Of a stretch of DNA of 64,000 nucleotides, positions 6,160 to 63,961 are shown one piece after another. This DNA comes from a virus. Location of the stretch: IMG/VR virus record IMGVR_UViG_3300047323_000304, positions 129,898 through 193,897 of that record. The stretch is one strand, 5' to 3'. Under the pieces are notes generated by a model that saw only the letters and a list, made by a program, of their open reading frames with translations, did not search any database and was not told where the DNA came from. Each line of letters begins with the position of its first letter. Positions within the stretch are counted from its first letter, which is position 1. The position numbers and the translations under genes are program-made.

Positions 6160-6660
6160 TTACTCTTCTCCTTTTATTATAAATTTTCTATCTAAATTTT
6201 TGTTTAAACATTTTTTACATTTATTTGATAATCCGTCTTTTGTACTAACATTAATTATAAACATTGATACGTCTAATTTTTCTCCACAACATTCACATAC
6301 TTTTAGTTTGTTGATATTATTGTCTTTAATTTGTTTTTTCTTTTTATCTCGTTCTATTTTTATTTTCTTTTGTGCGATTCTGCATTCATCTTGATACCCA
6401 CTAGGCTTGTTTTTATTTAAATTAAATGCATCTAACGGATGAAATTTATTACAATGCCAACACCATTTCCTACCATCATCTGTTATAAGTTGTCTGTTTG
6501 ATGTTTGTCTTTGTTTTTTAAAACCACATTCTGATCTCACTTTTTTTACTTCTGCCTCTTTTAATCCTAATTCTTCTGACATTTCTTTATCACTTTTAAA
6601 TCTAAAATTATTTTCTATGTAATCAACTTGTTCTACTGTTAACTCTTCATATTTGCTCAT
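6160..6660 (-). CDS. HTH plus zinc-finger repeat protein
   Basis: N-terminal SDKEMSEELG helix-turn-helix-like segment; two CxxC..F..K..G....C..C repeats. Confidence 0.6.
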   Translation of the reverse strand: MSKYEELTVEQVDYIENNFRFKSDKEMSEELGLKEAEVKKVRSECGFKKQRQTSNRQLITDDGRKWCWHCNKFHPLDAFNLNKNKPSGYQDECRIAQKKIKIERDKKKKQIKDNNINKLKVCECCGEKLDVSMFIINVSTKDGLSNKCKKCLNKNLDRKFIIKGEE

Positions 6661-32352: not shown

Positions 32353-32547
32353 TTATTTTTCCATCATTTCTAAAAATGAATCTGATTGAATAGATAAGAA
32401 TGCTTCATCACCAATACTAAAAATAGTTGCTAATTGATTCCAATTTTTATCATAGTACTCATAACCATTCTTAATGTGTTTTCTTGTAACATTACCTTCT
32501 ATAATCATTTTATCTAATATTTTTTCTGCTTTGATATAAGATTCCAT
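32353..32547 (-). CDS. hypothetical phage protein
   Basis: short ORF with AGGAG RBS. Confidence 0.6.
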   Translation of the reverse strand: MESYIKAEKILDKMIIEGNVTRKHIKNGYEYYDKNWNQLATIFSIGDEAFLSIQSDSFLEMMEK

Positions 32548-50215: not shown

Positions 50216-51346
50216 TTGAAAGTGCAAGAAGTGAAGTTGGGAAACAACGTAAAAAGATATATGTTGTTAGATCATAGAGGATTACCAGTTATTCCAGTTG
50301 TGAAATATTTAAAGTATCTTGATAATGGAGAAAAGAGTTATAATACGCAAAAGACTTATTGTTATTCTTTAAAACTATATTTTGAGTATCTAAAAGAGAT
50401 TGATGTAGATTATAGAAAAGTTAATATAAATATCTTATCTAATTTTATTGGGTGGCTTAGAAATCCATATGAGAATATTAAGACTATAGGAATAAAACCA
50501 ATAAAGGCTAAGAGAACTGAAAAAACAGTAAATTTATCAGTAACAGTTGTAACTAATTTCTATGACTATTTATTTAGAACGGAAGAAATAGAAAATGATA
50601 TGATTGAAAAATTAATGAAACAAGTATTTACGGGTGGTCACACTTCGTATAAAGACTTCTTACATCATGTTAATAAAGATAAACCTTCTAATAGGAATAT
50701 ACTAAAGATTAAAGAACCACGAAAAAAAATAAAAGTTCTAACTAAGGAAGAAACCGAAAAAATTTATAGAGCGACAACTAATATACGAGATGAATTTCTT
50801 ATTAAATTGCTATTTGAAACTGGATTGAGGATTGGTGAAGTTTTGTCTTTATTCATTGAAGATTTTAAATACGATCATAATAAAGGTCATAAGATAAAAT
50901 TAACAGACCGTGGCGAATTACCCAATGGTGCTAAGTTGAAAACTGGTGAACGTGAAATATATGCATCACAAGAGTTAATGGATTTATTTGATGATTATGA
51001 ATATGAAATCTTAGATGAATTAGAAATAGATACAAATTTTGTATTTGTTAAATTAAGGGGTAAGAATAAAGGACAACCACTTGAATATCAAGATGTAAGC
51101 GCGTTATTTAAAAGACTCAAACAAAAGACTGGAATTGATGTTCACGCTCACTTGCTAAGGCATACACATGCTACTATATATTATCGTCAAACAAAGGATA
51201 TAAAGCAGGTACAAGAACGATTAGGACATTCACAAATACAAACTACTATGAATATGTATTTACATCCTTCAGATGAAGATATAAGAGAAAGCTGGGAAAT
51301 AGCACAACCAGCATTTACATTAAATAAAGGAGACAAGAAAATATGA
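50216..51346 (+). CDS. Tn554 TnpA-like tyrosine recombinase
   Basis: TGLRIGEV, HLLRHT, LGHSQIQTTMNMY. Confidence 0.9.
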   Translation: MKVQEVKLGNNVKRYMLLDHRGLPVIPVVKYLKYLDNGEKSYNTQKTYCYSLKLYFEYLKEIDVDYRKVNINILSNFIGWLRNPYENIKTIGIKPIKAKRTEKTVNLSVTVVTNFYDYLFRTEEIENDMIEKLMKQVFTGGHTSYKDFLHHVNKDKPSNRNILKIKEPRKKIKVLTKEETEKIYRATTNIRDEFLIKLLFETGLRIGEVLSLFIEDFKYDHNKGHKIKLTDRGELPNGAKLKTGEREIYASQELMDLFDDYEYEILDELEIDTNFVFVKLRGKNKGQPLEYQDVSALFKRLKQKTGIDVHAHLLRHTHATIYYRQTKDIKQVQERLGHSQIQTTMNMYLHPSDEDIRESWEIAQPAFTLNKGDKKI

Positions 51347-53448
51347 AAAGTATTTTAAATACTTTAGGATACGAAAGTATAGATGATTATGACAATAAAA
51401 TAATCACTACTTTATCAAGTTATATAGAGAAAACACCTAACAATGATGGATTAGTAGATTATAAAGATATTAAAACTACATATTTTTTAGAAAATGACAA
51501 ATGGCACATAGGATTTTTTAACGGTATAGAACAATTTAAAAAACAAATTGAAAACTACAAATATTCAAATAAAAATATATCTTTCTCCTTTAACAATGTG
51601 AATATAAAAAATGAAACTAAATTTATAGTTTATAATAAATTATTTTCGGATGAATGGAGTTTTTACTCAGTTATAAATGGACAAATGCAATTCATAAGAA
51701 GGTTAATGGAATTTATAAATGAAAAGCATCATGATTTAAATTCATTACTTGACTTGGATTTAAATAAAACAAATATTCAATGGATAGACTGGCTTAATAG
51801 TCGCAATATTAAAACCATAACAACTACAAAACTTATAGAGAAAGAGTATCAGAATAAAACTGCTATTTCCAACTTTTTAGAAATTACATATAAAACCTTA
51901 TTTAATCTAACAGATGAGCGAGAAGAATGGGAAAAAGATATTTGGAATGTAAGAAATTTAGAGCGATATGGAATAACTTATAATAAATCAATAACGATAT
52001 ATATTATTGATTTTACTAAAATCAATAATATCAAAATTAGGAGTGAAGTTAAGAAATATATTAAACAAAGATTAATTTCTAACAATAAATTTTCTTGGTC
52101 TTCAGCAAGGAATTACATGTTTCATTTGCCAAACTTTATAAATTTTATCTGTGAATTAGAGCCTACTTGGGATGATTTAAAAGGATTAGAAAGGTATCAT
52201 ATAGAAAAATATTTAGAATGGTTGAACATTTATGTAAAAAAATTAATTCAAAAAAATGCTAATCCTCAACAATATATAAGAATGGCATTATCTTATATAC
52301 AAAAGTTTTTATCTGATATTCAAATTAGAGAATATGATATTTCTCCTATAAAAAATATTAGAATATTAATATTTCCATCAGATAAACCTATTATTAAGAA
52401 AAAGCCATACGACCAAATAGACTATGTTCCAGATATAGTTTTAGAACAGTTATTTAAAAATATAAATAATCTTCATAAAGAAGTTGTTCCCGTTGTTTGG
52501 ACTATGTACAAAACAGGGCTTAGAATATCTGATGTATTAGGGCTGAAACAAGATTGTTTAGTCAAATTGAATAATAAGTTTTGGATAGAAACTGATATAG
52601 AAAAAACTTATGTTCAAGGTCATAGAATACCTATTGATGATGAACTTGCTAATATGTTAGCAGTTTTAATTGATAATGCTAAGAGAAATAGCAATCAAGA
52701 TAATAACACTGAAAATTATATCTTCGTAAGATACAAAGGTAGTAGAAAAGGAAAACCTTATGGTAGTTATTGGAGCCAAACAAAACTTAATATATTAGCA
52801 AAAGATTACGATATTACAGATGAACTTGGAAATAGATATCATTTTAAAAATCACGCTTTCAGACATACCTATGCTATCAAAATGCTTAATGGTGGTGCCG
52901 ATATATTTACGGTTCAAGAATTGTTAGCACATGCTTCCCCTGAAATGACTATGAGATATGCAAGATTACTTGATGATACTAAAAGAAAAGTGTTTGATAA
53001 TGCAATAAAACAAGGTGTATTTAGTTTTGATGAAGGTGACAAGTTAAAGGAAGAAAATAATGGAGAAATACCTTCTGATGTTCTTGACATGCTTTGGACT
53101 AATCATAAGTTAAATGCTATTGATACTCCTTATGGAACTTGTTTACAAAGAACTAATGGTAAGTGTCAATTTGCAAAGCAACCACCTTGTCTAACCTGTA
53201 ATAGCGGTAATCCTTGTAGAGATTTATGTGTTGGAGCATTTGAAGGTGATATTAAAAAATATGAAATACTAATAAATTCAACAAAATCTCTTATAGGAAG
53301 TGCTAAAGTTTATAATAGAACAGAAATGTCTAAAGAAAATGAAGAATTGCTTAATTTATATGAAGATATTCACTCTAAAATAATGGAAGGAAATATAATT
53401 TATAGTAGATTAGATAGGTTAAAGAAAACGGGTGATAAAAATGACTAA
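51343..53448 (+). CDS. Tn554 TnpB-like large tyrosine recombinase
   Basis: TGLRISDV, HAFRHT, LLAHASPEMTMRYA; C-terminal Cys cluster. Confidence 0.9.
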   Translation: MKSILNTLGYESIDDYDNKIITTLSSYIEKTPNNDGLVDYKDIKTTYFLENDKWHIGFFNGIEQFKKQIENYKYSNKNISFSFNNVNIKNETKFIVYNKLFSDEWSFYSVINGQMQFIRRLMEFINEKHHDLNSLLDLDLNKTNIQWIDWLNSRNIKTITTTKLIEKEYQNKTAISNFLEITYKTLFNLTDEREEWEKDIWNVRNLERYGITYNKSITIYIIDFTKINNIKIRSEVKKYIKQRLISNNKFSWSSARNYMFHLPNFINFICELEPTWDDLKGLERYHIEKYLEWLNIYVKKLIQKNANPQQYIRMALSYIQKFLSDIQIREYDISPIKNIRILIFPSDKPIIKKKPYDQIDYVPDIVLEQLFKNINNLHKEVVPVVWTMYKTGLRISDVLGLKQDCLVKLNNKFWIETDIEKTYVQGHRIPIDDELANMLAVLIDNAKRNSNQDNNTENYIFVRYKGSRKGKPYGSYWSQTKLNILAKDYDITDELGNRYHFKNHAFRHTYAIKMLNGGADIFTVQELLAHASPEMTMRYARLLDDTKRKVFDNAIKQGVFSFDEGDKLKEENNGEIPSDVLDMLWTNHKLNAIDTPYGTCLQRTNGKCQFAKQPPCLTCNSGNPCRDLCVGAFEGDIKKYEILINSTKSLIGSAKVYNRTEMSKENEELLNLYEDIHSKIMEGNIIYSRLDRLKKTGDKND

Positions 53449-53821
53449 TTTTAATCGTAAAGAGCAATTAAAACAACTTCATGAAGAACGTAAAGTTAAG
53501 ACACAACAAAAGGTAGATGAAGCAATTAAACGTCTTATTAAATATCAAAAGCCTATTAATTTTAATAGTGTTGCTAATGAGAGTGGTGTTACAAAGGCTA
53601 CTCTTTATAATAATCCAAATATCAAAGAAAGAATTGAAGGACTTAGATTACAACAATCTAAAGTTCCTACTCCATCTCAAGTAAAAAGAGAAATGGATGA
53701 GAATAATAAAGATGCTATTATTGCAAGTTTAAAGAGAAGAATTAAAAAATTAGAAGAAGAAAATAAAGAACTTAAAGAACAAGTTAAAATAAGTTATGCG
53801 GATATATATAAACAAATATAA
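53432..53821 (+). CDS. Tn554 TnpC-like protein
   Basis: AIKRL..PINFNSVANESGVTKATLY...ERIEGLR; coiled-coil tail. Confidence 0.85.
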   Translation: MIKMTNFNRKEQLKQLHEERKVKTQQKVDEAIKRLIKYQKPINFNSVANESGVTKATLYNNPNIKERIEGLRLQQSKVPTPSQVKREMDENNKDAIIASLKRRIKKLEEENKELKEQVKISYADIYKQI

Positions 53822-54109
53822 TTTTATAGAAAATAATGGTATAATTTATACATGAATTGTTTCGTACTCGTAATCTTTAATGCAACTTTTGGCTGATAAT
53901 ATTCCTTGATTTTATGACGAATAGTGAAAAAAATGCGTCTTAGCTATTGGAATGGAAAACACGAATCATGATCTTCGGAAATTTAATAATGCGGTGTAAA
54001 AAAACAAAAGCATATACTATATTTTACAAGAAAAGTCACTAGTGAAGAAAAGTGGTACGTATATATGTAAAGATGCTATAATCATTATTAGTTAATTCAA
54101 AGTGCTAGA

Positions 54110-54922
54110 ATGTTTCTAGTGAATAACGAGGGGGCAATTAAAATGAGAATACCAATTTATCAGATTGATGCATTTACAAATGAACAATTTAAAGGTAATC
54201 CTGCCGCAGTATGTCCATTAGAAGAATGGATAAAAGATGATTTAATGCAGAAGATTGCTGCAGAGAATAATTTATCTGAAACTGCCTTTTTTGTAAAAAA
54301 TGGTGATGAATATGAGTTGAGATGGTTTACTCCAAAAGGGGAAATAGACTTGTGTGGACACGCTACATTAGCAACCGCTTATGTAATATTTACTTATCTA
54401 GATAAATCTATAATGAATATAAAATTTAATACCAAAAGTGGAATTTTAGAAGTATCTAAGGAAGGAGGCTTATTAGCAATGATTTTTCCTTCTAGAGAAG
54501 GAGAAAAGTGTAATATTCCAGAGTCACTTATTAAAGGTTTAGGAAAGCGACCAAAAGAGGTATACAAATCAAGAGACTATATGGCGGTGTTCGAAACTGA
54601 ACAAGATATAATTAATCTTGAATTAAATATGGATGATCTAAAAAAACTAGATGGATTTGGCGTAATAGTAACAGCAAAAGGAAATGAAGTAGATTTTGTA
54701 TCAAGAGCATTTGGACCAAAAGCAGGAATAGATGAGGATCCAGTTACTGGTTCAGCTCATTGTACATTAGTACCATATTGGAAAAATGTATTAGGTAAAA
54801 ATGAATTTGTTGCATTACAATTATCAGAAAGAGGTGGAAAACTTTTTTGTACTGATTTAGGTGAAATGGTAAAAATCTCCGGAGAAGTGGCATCTTATTT
54901 AGAAGGATATATAAATGTTTAG
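54110..54922 (+). CDS. PhzF-family isomerase/epimerase
   Basis: QIDAFT..GNPAAV, NLSETAF, DLCGHATLA, EDPVTGSAHC; likely start at MRIP. Confidence 0.92.
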   Translation: MFLVNNEGAIKMRIPIYQIDAFTNEQFKGNPAAVCPLEEWIKDDLMQKIAAENNLSETAFFVKNGDEYELRWFTPKGEIDLCGHATLATAYVIFTYLDKSIMNIKFNTKSGILEVSKEGGLLAMIFPSREGEKCNIPESLIKGLGKRPKEVYKSRDYMAVFETEQDIINLELNMDDLKKLDGFGVIVTAKGNEVDFVSRAFGPKAGIDEDPVTGSAHCTLVPYWKNVLGKNEFVALQLSERGGKLFCTDLGEMVKISGEVASYLEGYINV

Positions 54923-55253: not shown

Positions 55254-56759
55254 TTAAATATATTGAAATGTATATCCTTTATATTGCTTTCTTTTACCTA
55301 GACAAACAGTTGATATCATACTTTGAATTAACTTCGTTCCAAATCTTTTTATAGACTGTCTTTCTAATTCTGTGGCAGAAGGGAATATACCAAGACTAAT
55401 TCCATCTTTAAATATTTCTACTTGTTTAGAACATCTCTCTTGATTTCTAATTCCATTATTCTTATTATTCTTTTGTTTTTCTTCGTCGGAATCATAATGA
55501 CACCAACCAAGTTTGTTTCCTGATTTGAGCCATTCAATAATTGTACTTCTATCTATTCCCTTTTCTTCTACTATTGTCGTAGTTGTTAATTCTGGATTAT
55601 TATTTTTCATCTCACATATTTCTTTAGCCAAATTTGATAAAGCGAATTCATTACACCTATTCCAATCAATTTTATTTAAATCAAATAATTTATTTAGTGT
55701 TTTATTAGTTACTATATTTTGTTTAATGAATTCAAATCTTTTGTGTGTTCTATAATCACAATCAATTCTAATAACCTTAATACCATGTAATCTTGCTTGT
55801 TCATCTTTGTAATTATCTATAGCCTTTGATTCTTCTTTAGTTTGTCCACTCATTTTGTTATCATTATTGTGAAATTGTCCGTCCATTTCTATAATATACT
55901 TTTTATTGTTATATATAAAATAATTATCATAAGACATTTTTTCTATCCAATCTGGGGAATATTCATGTTCTATATAATAAAAATTATATATATTATCTAA
56001 TTGATTCAATAACTCATAAGAAAACTTATTAGGATATTTTATACCATCAGAACATGTACAACCTATTGAATGTCTTCTATAAATATCTCCTATAATCATC
56101 GGTTTATTTTTAATTATTGAACAACTTGGACAAATAGGGTATATTTTTCTATGACTATTATAGGTATACATTTTAGCTTCGTCATATCCATTTTGGAAAT
56201 ATGGAATCATCCAAGGAGAAGTAGATACGATTGAATTTATGTTTTCTACAACAACTTTATTGTCACAACAGGAGCATCCCCCATGATTGTTTAAATGAGA
56301 TTCATCAATCCATAATTCATCTTGATATAAATCACCCTTATAATGCTCACCACAATCAAAACCACATTTTTTGCACTTGTACTTATAATATTTTCTAGTT
56401 ATAACACTTTTGTCTTTTATTTTCTTTCTATCAGTTATTGTGATATCTCTTTTATCATCTTGAAATCTAGTGCCTATCTCTATTTTAAAAGCTGAAGTTT
56501 TTGTACCAATTATGTTACCAACTTTACTCTTCAAAAAGCAACTAGTTTTAATTTTATACTCTTCATATTCATATAATACTACTAATATTTGTCCTTTTGT
56601 AATATAATTTATTATCTCAATCCACCCTTCAATATTATCATAGACAAATTTAATTTTAGAACTTATACACTCTTTCCAATTAATTTTACCTTTGCATCTT
56701 CCTTCTGTATATTTAGGTAACTCCTCTAGAAATACTTTCCTAACTTTCTTCTCTTCCAT
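55254..56759 (-). CDS. Zn-ribbon / PD-(D/E)xK (DUF559-like) endonuclease with HTH and NUMOD1 tail
   Basis: CKKCGFDCG, CSCC, ICPSC, CTCSDG..YPNKF, IIEMDGQFH..D..K..GIKVIRI, C-terminal KQVEIF..YKGYTFQY. Confidence 0.75.
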   Translation of the reverse strand: MEEKKVRKVFLEELPKYTEGRCKGKINWKECISSKIKFVYDNIEGWIEIINYITKGQILVVLYEYEEYKIKTSCFLKSKVGNIIGTKTSAFKIEIGTRFQDDKRDITITDRKKIKDKSVITRKYYKYKCKKCGFDCGEHYKGDLYQDELWIDESHLNNHGGCSCCDNKVVVENINSIVSTSPWMIPYFQNGYDEAKMYTYNSHRKIYPICPSCSIIKNKPMIIGDIYRRHSIGCTCSDGIKYPNKFSYELLNQLDNIYNFYYIEHEYSPDWIEKMSYDNYFIYNNKKYIIEMDGQFHNNDNKMSGQTKEESKAIDNYKDEQARLHGIKVIRIDCDYRTHKRFEFIKQNIVTNKTLNKLFDLNKIDWNRCNEFALSNLAKEICEMKNNNPELTTTTIVEEKGIDRSTIIEWLKSGNKLGWCHYDSDEEKQKNNKNNGIRNQERCSKQVEIFKDGISLGIFPSATELERQSIKRFGTKLIQSMISTVCLGKRKQYKGYTFQYI

Positions 56760-56885
56760 TAATAATCAATCCTTTCAATATGTATTATAATTTATTTATC
56801 AATCCTAAAAATAGTAGGGAAGTAGCGATTGATTTTCTACTTGTCATTTGGTTAATTACTCCAAACTATCCATATTGATAGTATA
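56757..56885 (-). repeat. 129-bp leader repeat, copy 1
   Basis: exact reverse complement of 60811-60939; runs from the -10 box (TATACT) to the ATG. Confidence 0.9.
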
Positions 56886-57101
56886 TCACTTACCAAGTTA
56901 CTTGTCAAGTGTATTCTTTTTATTTTATTTAATTATAAAAACACGCTATTTTTATACCATTTTTAAGCGAAAAATCATTAAAAATTATGTAAAATTGAGT
57001 GTTTTTCAGTAAAATTTATCAATATATTTGATTTAATTGGTATCATTTTAATACATATCGAATAGTATAGACTATAAGATACTTCAAAAGGAGTAAAGAA
57101 A

Positions 57102-57275
57102 ATGCCACAAATATTAAGTGTATTAGAAATATTTTTAGTATCAAATCTAATTGCATATACTGTTCATTGTATAAAAGGACATAGTAGTAAAGAAAAAATT
57201 GAAATAATGTCAGTAAGAAGTGAATTACGAAAATTTAAAAAATTAGACGAATCCGACAAAAAATCTATATTTTAA
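57102..57275 (+). CDS. small membrane-anchored protein (57 aa, below the track cutoff)
   Basis: AGGAG RBS; hydrophobic N-terminus MPQILSVLEIFLVSNLIAY. Confidence 0.55.
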   Translation: MPQILSVLEIFLVSNLIAYTVHCIKGHSSKEKIEIMSVRSELRKFKKLDESDKKSIF

Positions 57276-57346
57276 AAAATAGTAGTAACACATTAATAGT
57301 TTAGCACATAGTATATATTATAAGAATTTAAGAAAGGAGAAATAAA

Positions 57347-58750
57347 ATGCTTCTATATGAGGAAATTAAACTAGTTTGTAAAATGATTAGCAATAATAAA
57401 CCTTGCCTACCTAAACAAAAAGCAGTAATAAATAAATTTAAACGTGATTGGAAAAGAATTATGGCTTTCTCTGGACTTTATAATGCTATGAAATTTACTT
57501 ATAGTCCTAATAGGATAAAAATAACTAATTATGGGCTAGAGACATCTATATATATAGTTCCTCCTTTAACTTTTAGTAAAATCAATGAATTAAGAGATAT
57601 GTTACAAGAGAATTTAGGATGTATGATTTTGTTTAATCACTCTAAAGTATCCCCTTTTATAAATGCAAAATTTATATTTAATCCACATGATGAAGATACT
57701 TATAAAGTAGTTAAACAAAAGTATCCTTGGGAAATCTATATTGGTAACAATTATGCAGGAGAACCTATACTTGTAGATATAAATAAATATGTTCATATAG
57801 GAGAATATGGAGGGACACGTTCGGGAAAATCAGTACAACAATCAGTTATACTAACAAACTTAATAGCGAATATATCACCTAAAGATGTAAATCTATATTT
57901 ATGTCAGGCTAGTAAGTCAGATTTAATACTGTTTAAGGCATGTGAACATACTAAGGCATTTGCGCAGACTTTAGAAGAAATATGGACTATATTGGATTAT
58001 TTAGTTAACACAGAAATGCCAAGAAGATCAAATTTAATAGAACCTTACAGAGAATGTGCTAAAGCAAGTAATTATAAAGATTATAATAAACTTAAGAAAA
58101 CTGAAAAAATGGTAATGACTTATGTAGTATTCGACGAAACTTCTTCTTTATTCCAAGAGCAAAATAAAGAAACTAAAACAATAAAAAGTGAAATAGAATT
58201 TTTCATGGAAGAAATAGCTAGAACAGGGGCTAGTCTTGGTATCGTACTTCTTGTATCTTTGCAAAGACCAACAAAAGAAAACATGAATACCACAATTAAA
58301 AGTCAGTGTACTACTACAATATCATTCAGACAAAATAATTCGGTTTCTAGTAATGTTGCAATAGATGATTCCAGTATTGCGATGGGATTAGAGATGCGTG
58401 AATTTGTTTATAGATTGGCTTCAAAAGATGTAGAATATGGTATTGTTCCATGGGTTAAAGATATAGAACTTCAAGAAATAATAAAACCATATAAGAAGCC
58501 ACACAGAACCCTATTTGATGACTTAGAAAAATTATCACATAGAAATGGTGTTAAAAAGAATAAAGAAAGTCTAGTAGAAATAGGAACTCATATGAAAACC
58601 GAAAAGGAAATACTTGAAGAGAATAAAGCCAAAAATCCTAATTGGGTAGATTGGCAAAACCCCACAGGAATGACTATTATAAATGATACTAAACTATCAT
58701 CCAATAAAACAGATAAACCAATAAATAATGGGAGGGAAAAAATATGCTGA
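57347..58750 (+). CDS. FtsK/SpoIIIE-family ATPase
   Basis: HIGEYGGTRSGKS Walker A, YVVFDE Walker B, LLVSLQRP. Confidence 0.88.
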   Translation: MLLYEEIKLVCKMISNNKPCLPKQKAVINKFKRDWKRIMAFSGLYNAMKFTYSPNRIKITNYGLETSIYIVPPLTFSKINELRDMLQENLGCMILFNHSKVSPFINAKFIFNPHDEDTYKVVKQKYPWEIYIGNNYAGEPILVDINKYVHIGEYGGTRSGKSVQQSVILTNLIANISPKDVNLYLCQASKSDLILFKACEHTKAFAQTLEEIWTILDYLVNTEMPRRSNLIEPYRECAKASNYKDYNKLKKTEKMVMTYVVFDETSSLFQEQNKETKTIKSEIEFFMEEIARTGASLGIVLLVSLQRPTKENMNTTIKSQCTTTISFRQNNSVSSNVAIDDSSIAMGLEMREFVYRLASKDVEYGIVPWVKDIELQEIIKPYKKPHRTLFDDLEKLSHRNGVKKNKESLVEIGTHMKTEKEILEENKAKNPNWVDWQNPTGMTIINDTKLSSNKTDKPINNGREKIC

Positions 58751-59343
58751 CTCCAAGAGATAGGGAGATTATAAACTTTATAGATGATATAGGTTATTCT
58801 ACCATACAAAACATTGCAGATTTGTTTTTTAGTCAAAATAGATTCTCATATGATCTTAGTCGTAAAAGACTTAAAAAGATAAAAGAAATGGGAAATTATA
58901 TAAGATGTTTCACTAATACTGAAACTACAGAAACAGTGTATATACCTTATGAATCTAATAAAAAGAAAGTATCAATCCATGATGTAATGGTATTAAACTA
59001 TATATGCAAATTAAAATTAATAGGATGTAATATAGAAAAAACTGAAATAGAACCAATGTTTAATAATACTGTAAAACCTGACGCACTTGTACAATTTGTA
59101 TTTAATGGATATAGATTTTATCAATTAATAGAGATGCAGATTAGACATAATTTAATAGATTTAGATAGATATAATAAAAAAGGTGTCATGAATTCTATAC
59201 TAGACAAGACTAATAACACTATACCCAAGCTAATAATAATTCAAGATACTAAGATAAACTATGCAGATAACAATCCAACTCAATTAGATATTATTCAAAT
59301 GGATACATCTATTGAGGACATAGCCAAAGTAATTATGGATTAG
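58744..59343 (+). CDS. replication-relaxation family protein
   Basis: LTPRDREII..IDD..STIQ...RKRL..H..VKPDA..LIEMQ; overlaps the FtsK stop. Confidence 0.65.
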   Translation: MLTPRDREIINFIDDIGYSTIQNIADLFFSQNRFSYDLSRKRLKKIKEMGNYIRCFTNTETTETVYIPYESNKKKVSIHDVMVLNYICKLKLIGCNIEKTEIEPMFNNTVKPDALVQFVFNGYRFYQLIEMQIRHNLIDLDRYNKKGVMNSILDKTNNTIPKLIIIQDTKINYADNNPTQLDIIQMDTSIEDIAKVIMD

Positions 59344-59684
59344 AATTACTCCCTCCTATAAGGGAATTACATATCAAAAGATGAAGATTATTCTGATTGC
59401 AAAAGATAGATATATGTCGTAAGTCTAAAGGCTAATATTTGATTGCTTGATTTATAATATGTGTTGATGGAGCATTTATAATTATATAGTGGCTTATATA
59501 CTAGGTATTGAGTTGTAGTGAAGTTTATATACTTAGTCTTAGCTAGTATATAGTATATGAAGTTACTATATAATTATAGATATTATCATTAACATGGTGT
59601 TATAAATTATAGGCAATTATGATATTAACTTGATAAACTTCTGATTAAATAATCTTATTTCTTAAGAGATATGAAATTAACTTT

Positions 59685-59987
59685 ATGAAGGAGGTATTCT
59701 TTATGATAGAATACATAATACACTTGTTGTTAAAAACAATACTAATACTTGGACTTGCCAATATAGCATTAGCTTTTGTTCCATCTCCAATAAGAAAAAC
59801 AATTATAGGAACATTTAAATTTGCATATAAGATTACTAATTTTGTAGTAACTCAACTTAAAAAAGTTGTCAAGAATATTTATGCAAACTACAAAGAAATT
59901 GAACAACCTAAAAAAAGAAAGTATACTCCACGTAAAAGGAATACTAACTCTAAGGTTATCCAATTTCCAAAGAAAAACATACAATAA
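59685..59987 (+). CDS. small membrane protein
   Basis: N-terminal TM segment, basic tail ending VIQFPK. Confidence 0.6.
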   Translation: MKEVFFMIEYIIHLLLKTILILGLANIALAFVPSPIRKTIIGTFKFAYKITNFVVTQLKKVVKNIYANYKEIEQPKKRKYTPRKRNTNSKVIQFPKKNIQ

Positions 59988-60289
59988 TATTATTTTTAAG
60001 AAGATTGATTAATTTCTTTCTTCTCTTCCTATAATAGTATTATTGACAAATATAAAATTAATATACATTAAGGAGAAATAATTTTATGAAAATAGTTAAA
60101 TTTAAATATTTTAAGAAAGACTATAGAAAATATTATAATGAAGATAGCAATTGTATTTCAATAAGAACTGAAGATAAAATGCAAGAAACTTTGTTTGATA
60201 TTTATGATACAGATGATTTTGAAATAGACTATGAGAAGGAAATAATAGAATTGTATTAAATTTTAATAATAATTAGGAGAGAATGTATT

Positions 60290-60475
60290 ATGACATCAAC
60301 AATAATAGCTGGACTTACTGGACTAGGAGTAGCAAGTATAATAGGAGAAAAGATATTAAATAATATGGGTAAAATTGAAATGGGAAGTTTCGTAGGATTG
60401 GCAGGATACTCACAATTAGCAATTTCTGCAATTTCAGGTGTTGTAAAATTAATTTCAGTAATAGCTAAGATATAA
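60290..60475 (+). CDS. SpoIIIAC-like two-helix membrane protein
   Basis: G.GV...EKIL..MGK.E...VGLAG pattern. Confidence 0.5.
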   Translation: MTSTIIAGLTGLGVASIIGEKILNNMGKIEMGSFVGLAGYSQLAISAISGVVKLISVIAKI

Positions 60476-60488
60476 GGTAGGTAATATT

Positions 60489-60713
60489 ATGGGAACAATG
60501 TTATCTAATGTAATTGGTGTAGGATGTGCTGGTTTTATATCATCTAAAGTATTTAAATGCTTAGGGAAACCTGAATTCAGTGAATTAATGATGCTTTGTG
60601 CATGGGTAGGAATAGGAATATATTTTTTTACATGGTTAAATGGAGTTAGTTTTACTGTAAGTAATAGTTGGTTTGGAGATTTGGTTAAGTGGTGTGCTAG
60701 TTTAACAAATTAA
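60489..60713 (+). CDS. SpoIIIAC/AD-like membrane protein
   Basis: IGVG...KVF..LGK.E..LM...VG pattern, paralogous in layout to the 60290 ORF. Confidence 0.45.
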   Translation: MGTMLSNVIGVGCAGFISSKVFKCLGKPEFSELMMLCAWVGIGIYFFTWLNGVSFTVSNSWFGDLVKWCASLTN

Positions 60714-60810
60714 TGACACTTATTTTAAGGGTTGTATTATTGCAACCCTTTTTAATTTTTTGTATAAACAAAATAAAAATAATATAGTTTACAAACAATA
60801 TGGTAAATAG

Positions 60811-60939
60811 TATACTATCAATATGGATAGTTTGGAGTAATTAACCAAATGACAAGTAGAAAATCAATCGCTACTTCCCTACTATTTTTAGGATTGATAA
60901 ATAAATTATAATACATATTGAAAGGATTGATTATTAATG
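60811..60939 (+). repeat. 129-bp leader repeat, copy 2
   Basis: identical to the reverse complement of 56757-56885. Confidence 0.9.
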
Positions 60940-62475
60940 TTAAGACAAAAGAAATTTAAAAAGATATTTTTAGAAAACTTAATCACATATGGCTCTAGTT
61001 CCAACAAAGGAAAAATTAATTGGCGAGAAAATATTGGAAAATCAATACATTTTATTTATGATAATATTGAAGATGATTTGATTTTAATAGAAGTAATCAC
61101 TACTCCAACAAAGAAAACAAATTTAATTTTTTCTTATAATAATAAAATTTTAAATCCAATTGCTACAGGAAATTTTATAAGATGTCAACTTGGTAATATA
61201 CTAGAAGTGTTTACGCCAGAATTCAAATATGAAATAGGACAAAGGATAATTGATTATAATGAGAATGGCACTATTAAAAGAGATTTTATAATTACAGATT
61301 GTACAAAAATAAAAGCTCAAAATGATCAATGGTTAAAATATTATAAATATAAATGCAATTTATGTGGATTTGATTGTGGAGAATATTATTCATCTAAAAA
61401 TGAACAATATTATGATGAATATTGGGTTTTAGAAAGTGGAATAAAGAAAAATAGTTGTTCTTGTTGTTGTGAAAGTTCTAATATAGTAGTGGAAAATATA
61501 AATTCAATTATAACTACAGCTCCTTGGTTAATACCCTATTTCCCTAATGGCTATACTGACGCTAAAAAGTATACTAAAACTAGTAACAAAAGTATAATTC
61601 CTATTTGCCCAGATTGTGAATGTAAAAAATCTAAAAAAACAATTATCGGAAGTATTTATAGATGTAATTCTATCGCTTGTACATGTTCAGATGGTGTGAG
61701 TTATCCAAATAAGTTCGCTTTTAAAATGCTTAAAGAATTAAATATTGATTTCATTAATGAGTATTCTCCAGATTGGATAAAACCTAAAGCATATGATTTT
61801 TATATTCCTTCATTAAATGTGATAATAGAAATGGATGGAGCACTCGGACATGGAAATAAAGTACATAATAAAGATACAAAAACTATTGAAGAGTCAAAAG
61901 CAATAGATAACTATAAAGATGAACAGGCACAACTACATGGAATTGAAGTAATTAGAATAGATTCTAAGGTTTCTGAATTAGATTATATAAAGAAAAATAT
62001 ATTATTAAAATTAAGTAAATTGTTTAATTTTACTAATATTGATTGGTTAGAATTAGAAAAGTATTCACTATCTAATTTAGTTAAAATCGCTTGCAAATAT
62101 AAACAAGACAATCTTAATATAACTAGCACTAAAATAGGTGAAATAATGGGATATAGTGATATGTCAATTCGTAGATGGCTAAAAAGAGGAACAGAAGTTG
62201 GTTGGTGTGAGTATGATGCTACTTTAGAGAAAAGTAAATCTATAACAAACAATAAAAAATTAAATAGTATGCCTTTGATTTGTTTAAATACTTTAGATAT
62301 ATTTGAATCAACTAGAGATTGTGAAAGACGTTGTGAAAAAATTTTAGGAGTTAAATTTTATGCAAGTTCAATAGGAGAATCATGTAGAAAGAATGGAAAA
62401 CCTTCTAAAGGATTTAGTTTTAAATATATTTCAGATTTAACAGATGAAGAAAAACAAAAATATAATATTGCATAA
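60937..62475 (+). CDS. Zn-ribbon / PD-(D/E)xK (DUF559-like) endonuclease, paralog of the 55254 gene
   Basis: CNLCGFDCG, CSCC, ICPDC, CTCSDG.SYPNKF, IIEMDGALGH..GIEVIRI. Confidence 0.75.
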   Translation: MLRQKKFKKIFLENLITYGSSSNKGKINWRENIGKSIHFIYDNIEDDLILIEVITTPTKKTNLIFSYNNKILNPIATGNFIRCQLGNILEVFTPEFKYEIGQRIIDYNENGTIKRDFIITDCTKIKAQNDQWLKYYKYKCNLCGFDCGEYYSSKNEQYYDEYWVLESGIKKNSCSCCCESSNIVVENINSIITTAPWLIPYFPNGYTDAKKYTKTSNKSIIPICPDCECKKSKKTIIGSIYRCNSIACTCSDGVSYPNKFAFKMLKELNIDFINEYSPDWIKPKAYDFYIPSLNVIIEMDGALGHGNKVHNKDTKTIEESKAIDNYKDEQAQLHGIEVIRIDSKVSELDYIKKNILLKLSKLFNFTNIDWLELEKYSLSNLVKIACKYKQDNLNITSTKIGEIMGYSDMSIRRWLKRGTEVGWCEYDATLEKSKSITNNKKLNSMPLICLNTLDIFESTRDCERRCEKILGVKFYASSIGESCRKNGKPSKGFSFKYISDLTDEEKQKYNIA

Positions 62476-62579
62476 ATCAATAAGCCTAGAATTTAATCTA
62501 GGCTTATTGATTTTTTGATTAAAAACGCATAAAAATAGCACCTACTCAATTTAAGTAAGTGCTTGGACTAGATATTATT

Positions 62580-63656
62580 TTAATCCCAAAAACTATCGTC
62601 TTCAAACATATCATTAAGTTCATTGCTTGAAACCTTAGATGAAGTATTTTCAGTATTATTGCTATTTGTATTTTTCTTATCTGTTCTGATTTTTAAATCA
62701 TCATAATCTTCATTAATCTTATTTTTCTTTCTAGACTCTAAATCGTTTTTAGCTTCTTGTATAAGTTCTATTGCTTCTTTTGGCATACTGCAATTACCAA
62801 ATACAAGTACACTATTTCCATTTTTATTTTCATTGATCTTTTCAAAGTCATAACCTTTATAGTTTTTATTAACATCATCCTTAGTAAAAGTCTCAGTATT
62901 TATAGTTCCTACTAATACATCACAATTTAACTTTTCTGGAATATAGAACATACTCTTCCCTATAGCTACATCTACTGCCTTTTTAAAGTCTTTAATATCG
63001 TTATCTAAATTTAAAATAACTTTATATCCTTTAGTCGTATGAACTCTCTTTGAATCAGTAGTATCTGTGTTATATTCAGATATGTTGAATCCCATATCTA
63101 ATTCTTTCATAGCTTTAATATTAATTTCTTTTTCATCAAGAGATTGATTGTTATCTATAAATTGAATTGAATCTATAATACCTTTATTTTTTAAATCTAT
63201 TAGTTCGTTCCAAAAATCAATTGCATTAGAAAAAGAAATTAATCCTTCCCCTATGTTAGGTAATGTTGCAACTATATTGATAGATTTTTCAGGACATACA
63301 TGTTTAGATTTTATTAATTTTGCTAACATTATCATTGCTTTACTACCTGTTCCGCCATCACCAGACCCAAAAAATAATATTGTACTTTGATTTGTAAATT
63401 TTTTAATCATCTCAACAAACTTAGGAGCTTCTTCTTTGATATATATTTCACATAAATCTCTATTTTTCCCACACCCATCAGCGTTAGGAATATAAAAACA
63501 ACGCCTTTCTCGGTTAAAATGGTCAAGTGTTTCCATTTCAGATAGATTTGTATTCATAAAAATCCCAGTATATCGTTTATCTAATCCTAAAAATACAGAC
63601 AATTGTGCGTTTCCACAACCACCACAACCAATAGCTAAAATATCACTTTTTTTCAT
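62580..63656 (-). CDS. tubZ: TubZ tubulin/FtsZ-family partition GTPase
   Basis: AIGCGGCGN, NTN..E, DGCGKNR, DGGTGS signature; acidic tail; lies downstream of a small wHTH gene. Confidence 0.85.
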   Translation of the reverse strand: MKKSDILAIGCGGCGNAQLSVFLGLDKRYTGIFMNTNLSEMETLDHFNRERRCFYIPNADGCGKNRDLCEIYIKEEAPKFVEMIKKFTNQSTILFFGSGDGGTGSKAMIMLAKLIKSKHVCPEKSINIVATLPNIGEGLISFSNAIDFWNELIDLKNKGIIDSIQFIDNNQSLDEKEINIKAMKELDMGFNISEYNTDTTDSKRVHTTKGYKVILNLDNDIKDFKKAVDVAIGKSMFYIPEKLNCDVLVGTINTETFTKDDVNKNYKGYDFEKINENKNGNSVLVFGNCSMPKEAIELIQEAKNDLESRKKNKINEDYDDLKIRTDKKNTNSNNTENTSSKVSSNELNDMFEDDSFWD

Positions 63657-63661
63657 GATTA

Positions 63662-63961
63662 TTACACCTCACCAAATATATTTTTTCTAATATTATTCAA
63701 TTCTCTAAATCCTTGCTCTGTTAATATATAAGTCTTTTCTTTTCCATTTTTTAAACCTTCAGTTATAAAGCCTTCTTTTATAAATTTATCTCTAGTTTCC
63801 CTTATTTTTTTATCAGATAGAGTAGTTTTAGTAATTAATTCTTTAATTGTAGTTCCATTACTCATACATAATCCTTTTTTTCTGTCATTTCTATCTATAA
63901 TTGCTTTCAGTATTTGATAATCTTTAGTAGTAAACATGGATATATTACACCTCACTCCCAA
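63662..63961 (-). CDS. tubR: TubR-like winged-helix centromere-binding protein
   Basis: T.KDYQILKAI..TTIKELITKT.LS..KIR..F...GFI.EG..GK.KTY.LT..G. Confidence 0.7.
   Translation of the reverse strand: MGVRCNISMFTTKDYQILKAIIDRNDRKKGLCMSNGTTIKELITKTTLSDKKIRETRDKFIKEGFITEGLKNGKEKTYILTEQGFRELNNIRKNIFGEV

Follow-up and report, generated by a model that had tools for sequence, protein, structure and literature searches.

A predicted structured leader RNA in identical inverted copies before two diverged homing-endonuclease-like genes of a metagenomic virus

Two diverged genes for predicted homing endonucleases, designated nucleases A and B, lie in the window examined here, the last 64 kb (64,000 nucleotides, nt) of the 193,897-bp viral contig IMGVR_UViG_3300047323_000304, a metagenome assembly in IMG/VR with a G+C content of 26%. 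Each gene starts inside one copy of a perfect inverted repeat of 129 bp, which opens with the -10 hexamer TATACT and closes with the last letter, G, of the start codon, that is, 127 nt upstream up to the A of the ATG, plus TG. Comparison among homologous leaders indicates that the repeat encodes a structured RNA. We regard as fairly probable an explanation in two parts, in which a portable leader throttles translation of the nuclease that follows it, and recent recombination or gene conversion between the two inverted leaders has flipped the gene cassette that they enclose. The parts of the two units are as follows.

56757-56885, minus strand: left copy of the 129-bp repeat, with the -10 box, a leader RNA of about 117 nt, the Shine-Dalgarno (SD) sequence and the ATG of nuclease A; covariance model match at 56757-56873, 122.9 bits
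60811-60939, plus strand: right copy of the 129-bp repeat, before nuclease B; the RNA part is about 60823-60939, a covariance model match
56908-56903, minus strand: -35 box TTGACA of the left promoter, with a 17-nt spacer and a TG-extended -10 box
60788-60816, plus strand: right promoter, with TTTACA (60788-60793), a 17-nt spacer and TATACT
55254-56759, minus strand: nuclease A, an open reading frame (ORF) of 501 amino acids (aa), free-standing and homing-endonuclease-like; phrog_4538 at E 2.7e-34
60937-62475, plus strand: nuclease B, 512 aa, with a Zn-ribbon region, a predicted EDxHD/Vsr-like domain (255-364), a winged helix-turn-helix (wHTH; 379-426) and an I-HmuI-like tail (427-500)

The preliminary description of this DNA had reported perfect identity from the -10 box to the ATG, flanked by differing -35 boxes and coding regions. 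With the coordinates checked, the first point is correct in every detail, the two copies forming an inverted repeat; the second holds as well, with TTGACA against TTTACA and proteins that are 45% identical. On the promoter side a further 55 bases are about 69% identical, so that the repeat in its full extent measures 184 bp at 91%; past the ATG, nucleotide identity drops to about 61%. The whole 193,897-bp contig has just these two copies of the repeat.

A leader family with covarying stems

Leaders were compared in the 300 nt that precede each of about 75 related nuclease genes. These regions share a layout whose letters vary: after a purine-rich start come two hairpins, with a UGAUAAG-like linker between them, and then a CUUCCYUAUUUU stretch. 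The layout ends with a short word, then AAAUAAAUUA, then the identical word again at the SD site, and the loop of the second hairpin is complementary to this repeated word. A first covariance model, built from the present leader alone and the three stems named in the preliminary description, was used to search 124 non-redundant loci. The model was rebuilt from 21 hits, and a second search with it gave a final set of 31 distinct leaders, on contigs that are viral, metagenomic or part of Clostridia/Bacillota genomes. An alignment of the leaders by MAFFT placed the stems out of register and was excluded from counting.

Nearly all of these leaders (28 of 31) sit directly before a gene of the nuclease family. 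The remaining three comprise one before a GIY-YIG gene, one before an ORF6N-domain gene, and L167, for which no ORF start was located. Since the model matches before GIY-YIG and ORF6N genes too, the leader is not bound to one protein family. The GIY-YIG case has its leader at L025:6776-6890 and a homing-endonuclease gene at L025:6888; the ORF6N case has its leader at L039:6716-6819 and an anti-repressor-like gene at L039:6808. A sigma-70-type promoter can be recognised ahead of about half of the leaders, with its end 6-13 nt before the RNA. Leader and nuclease gene move together, as is seen from the absence of the leader at this site in the nuclease-free relatives L190 and L191. The leader of L051, from the related phage G001, is about 85% identical to the one described here, though its nuclease is only 35% identical.

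The source genome holds four leader copies and one weak match, which lies outside the window at G000:C1:103483-103570 on the minus strand (26 bits, E 0.33). A candidate for a third copy in the window, at 32368-32472, scored E 0.18 with the first model and was gone with the better one. A blastn search of the 184-bp repeat against 50,697 GenBank phages gave no match. An exact 35-mer of the leader was not found in IMG/VR, and a 25-mer leader pattern matched only G001 and its twin. Rfam 15 returned nothing relevant at E up to 1 for 10 kb of sequence, or at E up to 10 for the leader alone, and Rfam searches of 16 other leader loci gave no significant family at E up to 5, RF02996 being absent. The model of that family, int-alpA (RF02996), had no match at E up to 10 across the 193.9-kb genome, its gathering threshold of 35.8 bits not being reached, and the leader is not filed under it. 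No account of this leader family was found in the literature searched.

The structural elements, given here for the right copy, are these.

60825-60887, plus strand: three-way junction, with P0 (60825-60831/60881-60887), P1 (60832-60835/60845-60848) and P2 (60854-60859/60871-60876)
60836-60844, plus strand: apical loop of P1, AGUAAUUAA, containing the self-complementary hexamer UAAUUA (60838-60843)
60860-60870, plus strand: P2 loop AAAAUCAAUCG, anti-SD-like
60892-60898, plus strand: decoy GAUUGAU, complementary to the P2 loop
60899-60908, plus strand: conserved A/U box AAAUAAAUUA, between decoy and SD
60921-60932, plus strand: SD AAAGGA overlapping the second loop target GAUUGAUU, which is itself 60925-60932

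When 17 base pairs are followed through the 31-leader alignment, 92.6% of cells are paired, compared with 69% for shuffled partners and 46-59% when partners are shifted by 1-3 columns. Covariation scores 0.646, while shuffled partners score 0.228 (none of 500 shuffles reaches 0.646) and shifted ones 0.07-0.15. In 16 of the 17 pairs, both positions vary. Sense-strand G-U pairs are frequent, pair 4-113 being G-U in 18 of the 31 leaders, and their commonness means that the element fits RNA and not duplex DNA.

Three points count against this structural reading. The covariation was counted on a model-fitted alignment, which favours the structure. RNAalifold, run on the 31-leader alignment with the stored structure withheld, recovered P1 and P2 with compensatory changes at every pair, and did so without P0, lengthening P1 by two pairs instead. 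The single-sequence fold, finally, is no more stable than its shuffles (z -0.25 and +0.52), so the support for the structure is the comparison among leaders and not folding energy. On that comparative evidence we take the leader to be a real structured RNA in which P1 and P2 are firm. P0 has support of a lesser degree, and its two inner pairs may exchange with the longer form of P1. In alignment A8, columns 9-10 with 67-68 or 106-109, the inner P0 positions pair equally well when they extend P1, and both alternatives covary; this ambiguity could mean that the RNA has a second alternative pairing built into it, or that a base triple forms at the junction.

A conserved cis-acting RNA folded as a multi-stem junction had been proposed in the preliminary description, together with a search for leader homologues, their downstream genes and covariation. 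Homologous leaders do exist, with the linkage to family nucleases given above, and all three of the stems named there are present and covary in the 31 leaders. Other candidate features were rejected. A long-range stem, UCAAUAUG/CAUAUUGA, of the minimum-free-energy fold is not kept in L051. A 20-codon leader-peptide ORF, MTSRKSIATSLLFLGLINKL, has its frame broken by three 1-nt indels in L051. For a translational bypass between two GGAUUGAU words, the landing frame differs from the nuclease frame.

Loop pairings and the proposed control of translation

The word AAUCAAUC in the P2 loop is complementary both to the decoy GAUUGAU and to GAUUGAUU at the SD. Targets of this kind were sought in every leader individually, independently of alignment columns, as perfect complements of at least 6 nt. 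Within the decoy window, defined as the first 24 nt after P0, 29 of 31 leaders match their own P2 loop, compared with 3.6% of mismatched loop-tail pairs. For the SD-side window the figures are 24 of 31 and 18%. Mean duplex stability is equal at the two sites, -9.0 kcal/mol for the decoy and -8.9 kcal/mol for the SD side. In the three-way-junction model the SD is single-stranded, and the loop that faces it is about 55 nt upstream. Because two equally stable partners are open to the P2 loop, the leader could hide or expose the ribosome-binding site.

Homing endonucleases must be expressed at a level that suffices for their spread and yet spares phage and host. We propose that each copy of the repeat is a portable expression unit that moves with free-standing homing-endonuclease genes and brings its own sigma-70-type promoter and a leader of about 117 nt. 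With the P2 loop on the decoy, the ribosome-binding site would be free; with the loop on the SD region, it would be blocked, and this pairing would throttle translation of a potentially harmful nuclease. Candidates for what shifts the balance are the order of folding during transcription, RNA concentration by way of dimerisation, a protein, or a small molecule at the conserved junction. The conserved complementarity suggests that the leader probably limits nuclease production. It is a portable RNA module lacking a Rfam 15 match and carrying three independently covarying features, namely a junction, a loop target divided between decoy and SD, and a self-complementary tip. A leader acting in this way would offer a small natural example of an RNA switch with two partners, and perhaps a case of mRNA dimerisation in phages.

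The third of these features is the loop of P1. A palindrome of at least 6 nt is present in the P1 loop of 27 of 31 leaders, in 10 different words, while shuffled loops give a mean of 3.9 and a maximum of 10 in 2000 trials; no P2 loop among the 31 leaders has a qualifying palindrome. Most P1 loops are 9 nt long, made of two bases, the hexamer and one further base, here AG-UAAUUA-A. With a self-complementary hexamer in the loop, two leaders can probably pair tip to tip through P1, and dimerisation of this kind may take part in the throttling. The two distant leader copies of the source genome have UCAUGA with UUCCG/CGGAA, and UUCGAA with UCGACC/GGUCGA. We offer as a speculative and rather doubtful extension that leaders form P1 tip-to-tip dimers, that each unit has a private code made up of its palindrome and its loop/SD word, and that A and B are the sole code-sharing pair here. 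Were this true, the diverged nucleases A and B would be cross-regulated as one, and the shared code could favour keeping their leaders identical.

The conserved words might instead act in DNA as protein-binding sites, for example as operators for nuclease autorepression, as with I-TevI, or for a phage repressor. A palindromic P1 hexamer and direct repeats of the decoy and SD words are typical operator layouts, and to that extent this explanation is attractive. We judge it improbable because G-U occurs in many stem pairs and only on the sense strand, which fits RNA and not duplex DNA; because the stems covary without sequence conservation; because the elements belong to the transcribed part, past the -10 box; and because more than one nuclease family has this type of leader in front of it. 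A role as RNA partner, raised in the preliminary description, would make the leader a cofactor or guide comparable to the RNAs of IscB or TnpB. It finds no support and is very improbable. Tight linkage to nuclease genes and a variable loop word that differs between paralogues speak for it, but that word is complementary to two sites of its own transcript, one of them at the ribosome-binding site, with no outside target identified; the nuclease is predicted to carry its own homing-endonuclease-type DNA-binding domains; and the leader stands before GIY-YIG and ORF6N genes as well.

Identity of the two copies and the reversed cassette

Nucleases A and B face outward on either side of seven co-directional genes. 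The features between and around them are listed here.

57102-60713, plus strand: seven-gene cassette between the repeats, with products of 57, 467, 199, 100, 57, 61 and 74 aa in order
60727-60750, plus strand: terminator-like hairpin closing the cassette
56945-56981, plus strand: stretch of about 37 bp, copy 1; single-copy in L191 (about 6576-6612); flanks the ancestral insertion site of unit B
62504-62540, minus strand: stretch of about 37 bp, copy 2, with the stop of B on one side and the TubZ-like operon's terminator on the other

Three relatives show what the region looks like elsewhere. In G001 and L191, a YdjM-like gene, the cassette and a TubZ-like operon are co-directional. The TubZ-like operon of L191 directly adjoins the 57-aa end of the cassette, in one direction throughout, and G001 has this same gene order, except that a single inserted leader-nuclease unit separates its 57-aa gene from the TubZ-like operon. 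The cassette of L190 is accompanied by neither a nuclease nor a leader. In the source contig the YdjM-like gene and the TubZ-like operon keep their direction, and the cassette between the leaders is reversed when set against these three relatives. A single intergenic stretch of L191 (6536-6752) matches both 62504-62579, by the stop of B, and 56945-57101, by the promoter of A. As this stretch joins the two flanks, the upstream region that now serves A once served B. Both copies of the stretch of about 37 bp are also carried by G001; a flanking duplication of this sort is unlike what simple homing by double-strand-break repair would leave.

The preliminary description had considered strong conservation as a cause of the identity, and a recently copied module as another. 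Conservation alone fails to explain 100% identity, because the nearest other leader, that of G001, is 85% identical and the rest are 43-72% identical. A recent gene duplication with fast coding divergence is likewise rejected: nuclease A ranks only 23rd (P0023) among the listed database homologues of B, and the two are no closer to each other than many unrelated database homologues are to B. What survives of the second idea is a recent event, in the form of recombination or conversion between old units. We suggest that two old, independently diverged units, with leaders that were already alike, lay inverted around the 3.9-kb cassette, and that homologous recombination or gene conversion through these leaders made 129 bp uniform and turned the cassette around. 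A crossover for inversion inside the leaders would yield exactly the observed arrangement, and conversion would span the stretch similar enough to pair. On the sequence comparisons given here, the identity is most likely and best explained by a recent event of recombination or gene conversion that involved the two inverted leaders, and the perfect identity is then local recombination, not a sign of unusual constraint.

Some considerations tell against recombination as the source of the identity. Conversion requires leaders that were already similar, which is an assumption, and the closest relatives of A have leaders only about 55-61% identical. A 129-bp repeat is also near the largest k-mer of common assemblers, and the identity and the cassette orientation could owe something to metagenome assembly. 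In the stronger form of this objection, near-identical leaders were merged into one consensus that was used twice, with the orientation of the intervening segment arbitrary in a de Bruijn graph. The source is an IMG/VR metagenome contig whose end the window reaches, the perfect stretch is just above the k=127 of common metagenome assemblers, and an assembly graph allows a segment flanked by inverted repeats to be read in both directions. We nevertheless consider an assembly effect unlikely. The contig crosses both copies into unique flanks on each side, and identity on the promoter side decays gradually, as in real homologous units. The 85% identity of the G001 leader makes two near-identical copies in one genome biologically plausible, and the leaders would still need to be near-identical even under an assembly reading.

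A programmed invertible segment, with the leaders as crossover sites, would also account for perfect inverted repeats that bracket a 3.9-kb cassette, itself inverted relative to G001 and L191. Inversion would swap the -35 boxes and upstream regions between the nucleases and reverse the cassette; the two promoters do differ in -35 quality, and there are two genes for tyrosine recombinases on the left, at a distance of 3.4-6.5 kb. The recombinases, however, belong to a trio of two recombinases and a DUF6262 protein that is absent from the relatives, 129 bp is far longer than typical invertase sites, and each nuclease has a complete promoter and leader in either orientation, so that little would be switched. 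We therefore give this explanation only a slim chance. The trio is co-directional within window positions 50216-54922, with tyrosine recombinases of 376 aa and 701 aa and a DUF6262 protein of 129 aa, followed by a PhzF-like gene at 54110-54922. We presume that it resembles a Tn554-type TnpA/TnpB/TnpC transposition module with cargo. A block at about 50.04-55.25 kb, ending beside nuclease A, is absent from L190, L191 and G001.

Returning to the favoured explanation, in which the leaders recombined, the identical inverted leader pair and the flipped cassette are what is new here. Shared leaders would give homologous recombination a foothold from which to rearrange phage genomes, in this case by flipping a DNA-translocase cassette. 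The 467-aa product of the cassette is an FtsK/SpoIIIE-like ATPase and the 199-aa product belongs to phrog_9996; a TubZ-like gene is found downstream of nuclease B. Across window positions 57102-63961, the FtsK/SpoIIIE-like ATPase cassette, with its small membrane proteins, adjoins the TubZ-like gene. A neighbourhood of this composition suggests that this phage genome carries a region for partition and DNA transfer like that of plasmids, and the source virus possibly has a phage-plasmid lifestyle.

Leader-nuclease units are present or absent at different intergenic sites among related phages, a distribution that lends at most indirect support to site-specific cleavage and homing. At L191:1021-2186, on the minus strand, a leader (78.7 bits) together with a shorter nuclease-like ORF of 350 aa is located about 3 kb beyond the TubZ-like operon; with the L191 unit placed elsewhere, the units occupy different intergenic sites in related phages.

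The nucleases and comparison with known systems

The family to which A and B belong has 859 database homologues of B, none above 48% identity and often several per contig. More than 850 homologues are found in phages, metagenomes and Clostridia/Bacillota genomes, and the source genome itself has four copies of the family. In PHROGs both nucleases fall in phrog_4538, and B also falls in homing-endonuclease families. Pfam and NCBIfam contain no family covering A and B, and a sequence search of PDB with the nuclease family profile matched no chain.

An AlphaFold2 model of B was obtained with a predicted local distance difference test (pLDDT) score of 86.6. In structural alignments, residues 255-364 are best matched by 3r3p_A, the catalytic domain of I-Bth0305I (Z 8.9, root-mean-square deviation 3.1, 93 of 97 residues), with the Vsr structures 1cw0_A (Z 8.4) and 1vsr (Z 7.6) ranking next; Foldseek gives the model of B a probability of 0.99 against 3r3p_B and 1vsr. 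Winged-helix DNA-binding domains align with residues 379-426, and the DNA-binding tail of I-HmuI aligns with residues 427-500. E298, D300, H305, D324, K327 and four cysteine pairs do not vary among 24 family members over the range aligned. A and B are accordingly predicted, on the modelled structure, to be free-standing homing endonucleases of the EDxHD/Vsr-like kind. The preliminary description, which called them Zn-ribbon PD-(D/E)xK nucleases, was roughly right: the CxxC pairs are there, while the fold is of the EDxHD/Vsr-like type with a wHTH and an I-HmuI-like tail.

The modelled catalytic domain of B thus appears to share a Vsr-like fold with I-Bth0305I, an EDxHD enzyme, and with Vsr. According to the abstract of PMC3239194, I-Bth0305I sits in a group I intron, whereas members of the A/B family are free-standing. 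Unlike I-Bth0305I, the A/B family has a long N-terminal region with four CxxC-type pairs, and several copies per phage.

For the P1 tip the closest likeness is the dimerization initiation site (DIS) of HIV-1. The DIS kissing loop is 9 nt long, with two 5' bases, a self-complementary hexamer and one 3' base, and its word differs among variants yet remains self-complementary. The P1 loop has the same 9-nt layout and a word that is variable but self-complementary. The setting differs, for the P1 loop belongs to a phage mRNA leader and not to a retroviral genome, and P1 is one arm of a junction that also bears an anti-SD loop.

As controls of homing endonucleases, to our knowledge, only a few simple ribosome-binding-site hairpins of T-even phages have been studied. 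The homing-endonuclease genes of these phages (I-TevI, I-TevII, I-TevIII, Aeh1 mobE and T4 segB) have RNA structures that sequester the ribosome-binding site (PMC3014915). The present leader resembles them in being a cis-acting RNA in the 5' region of a phage homing-endonuclease mRNA, complementary to the ribosome-binding site, with low translation expected. The T-even structures are simple local hairpins, some of them opened by transcription from a late promoter inside the hairpin (PMC3014915). This leader is not a simple local SD hairpin with an internal late promoter of the T4 type, its only strong promoter standing upstream of the whole leader RNA. Unlike the T-even structures, it would be a junction with an anti-SD word in a hairpin loop, an equally stable decoy and a palindromic tip, with the promoter upstream of the structure.

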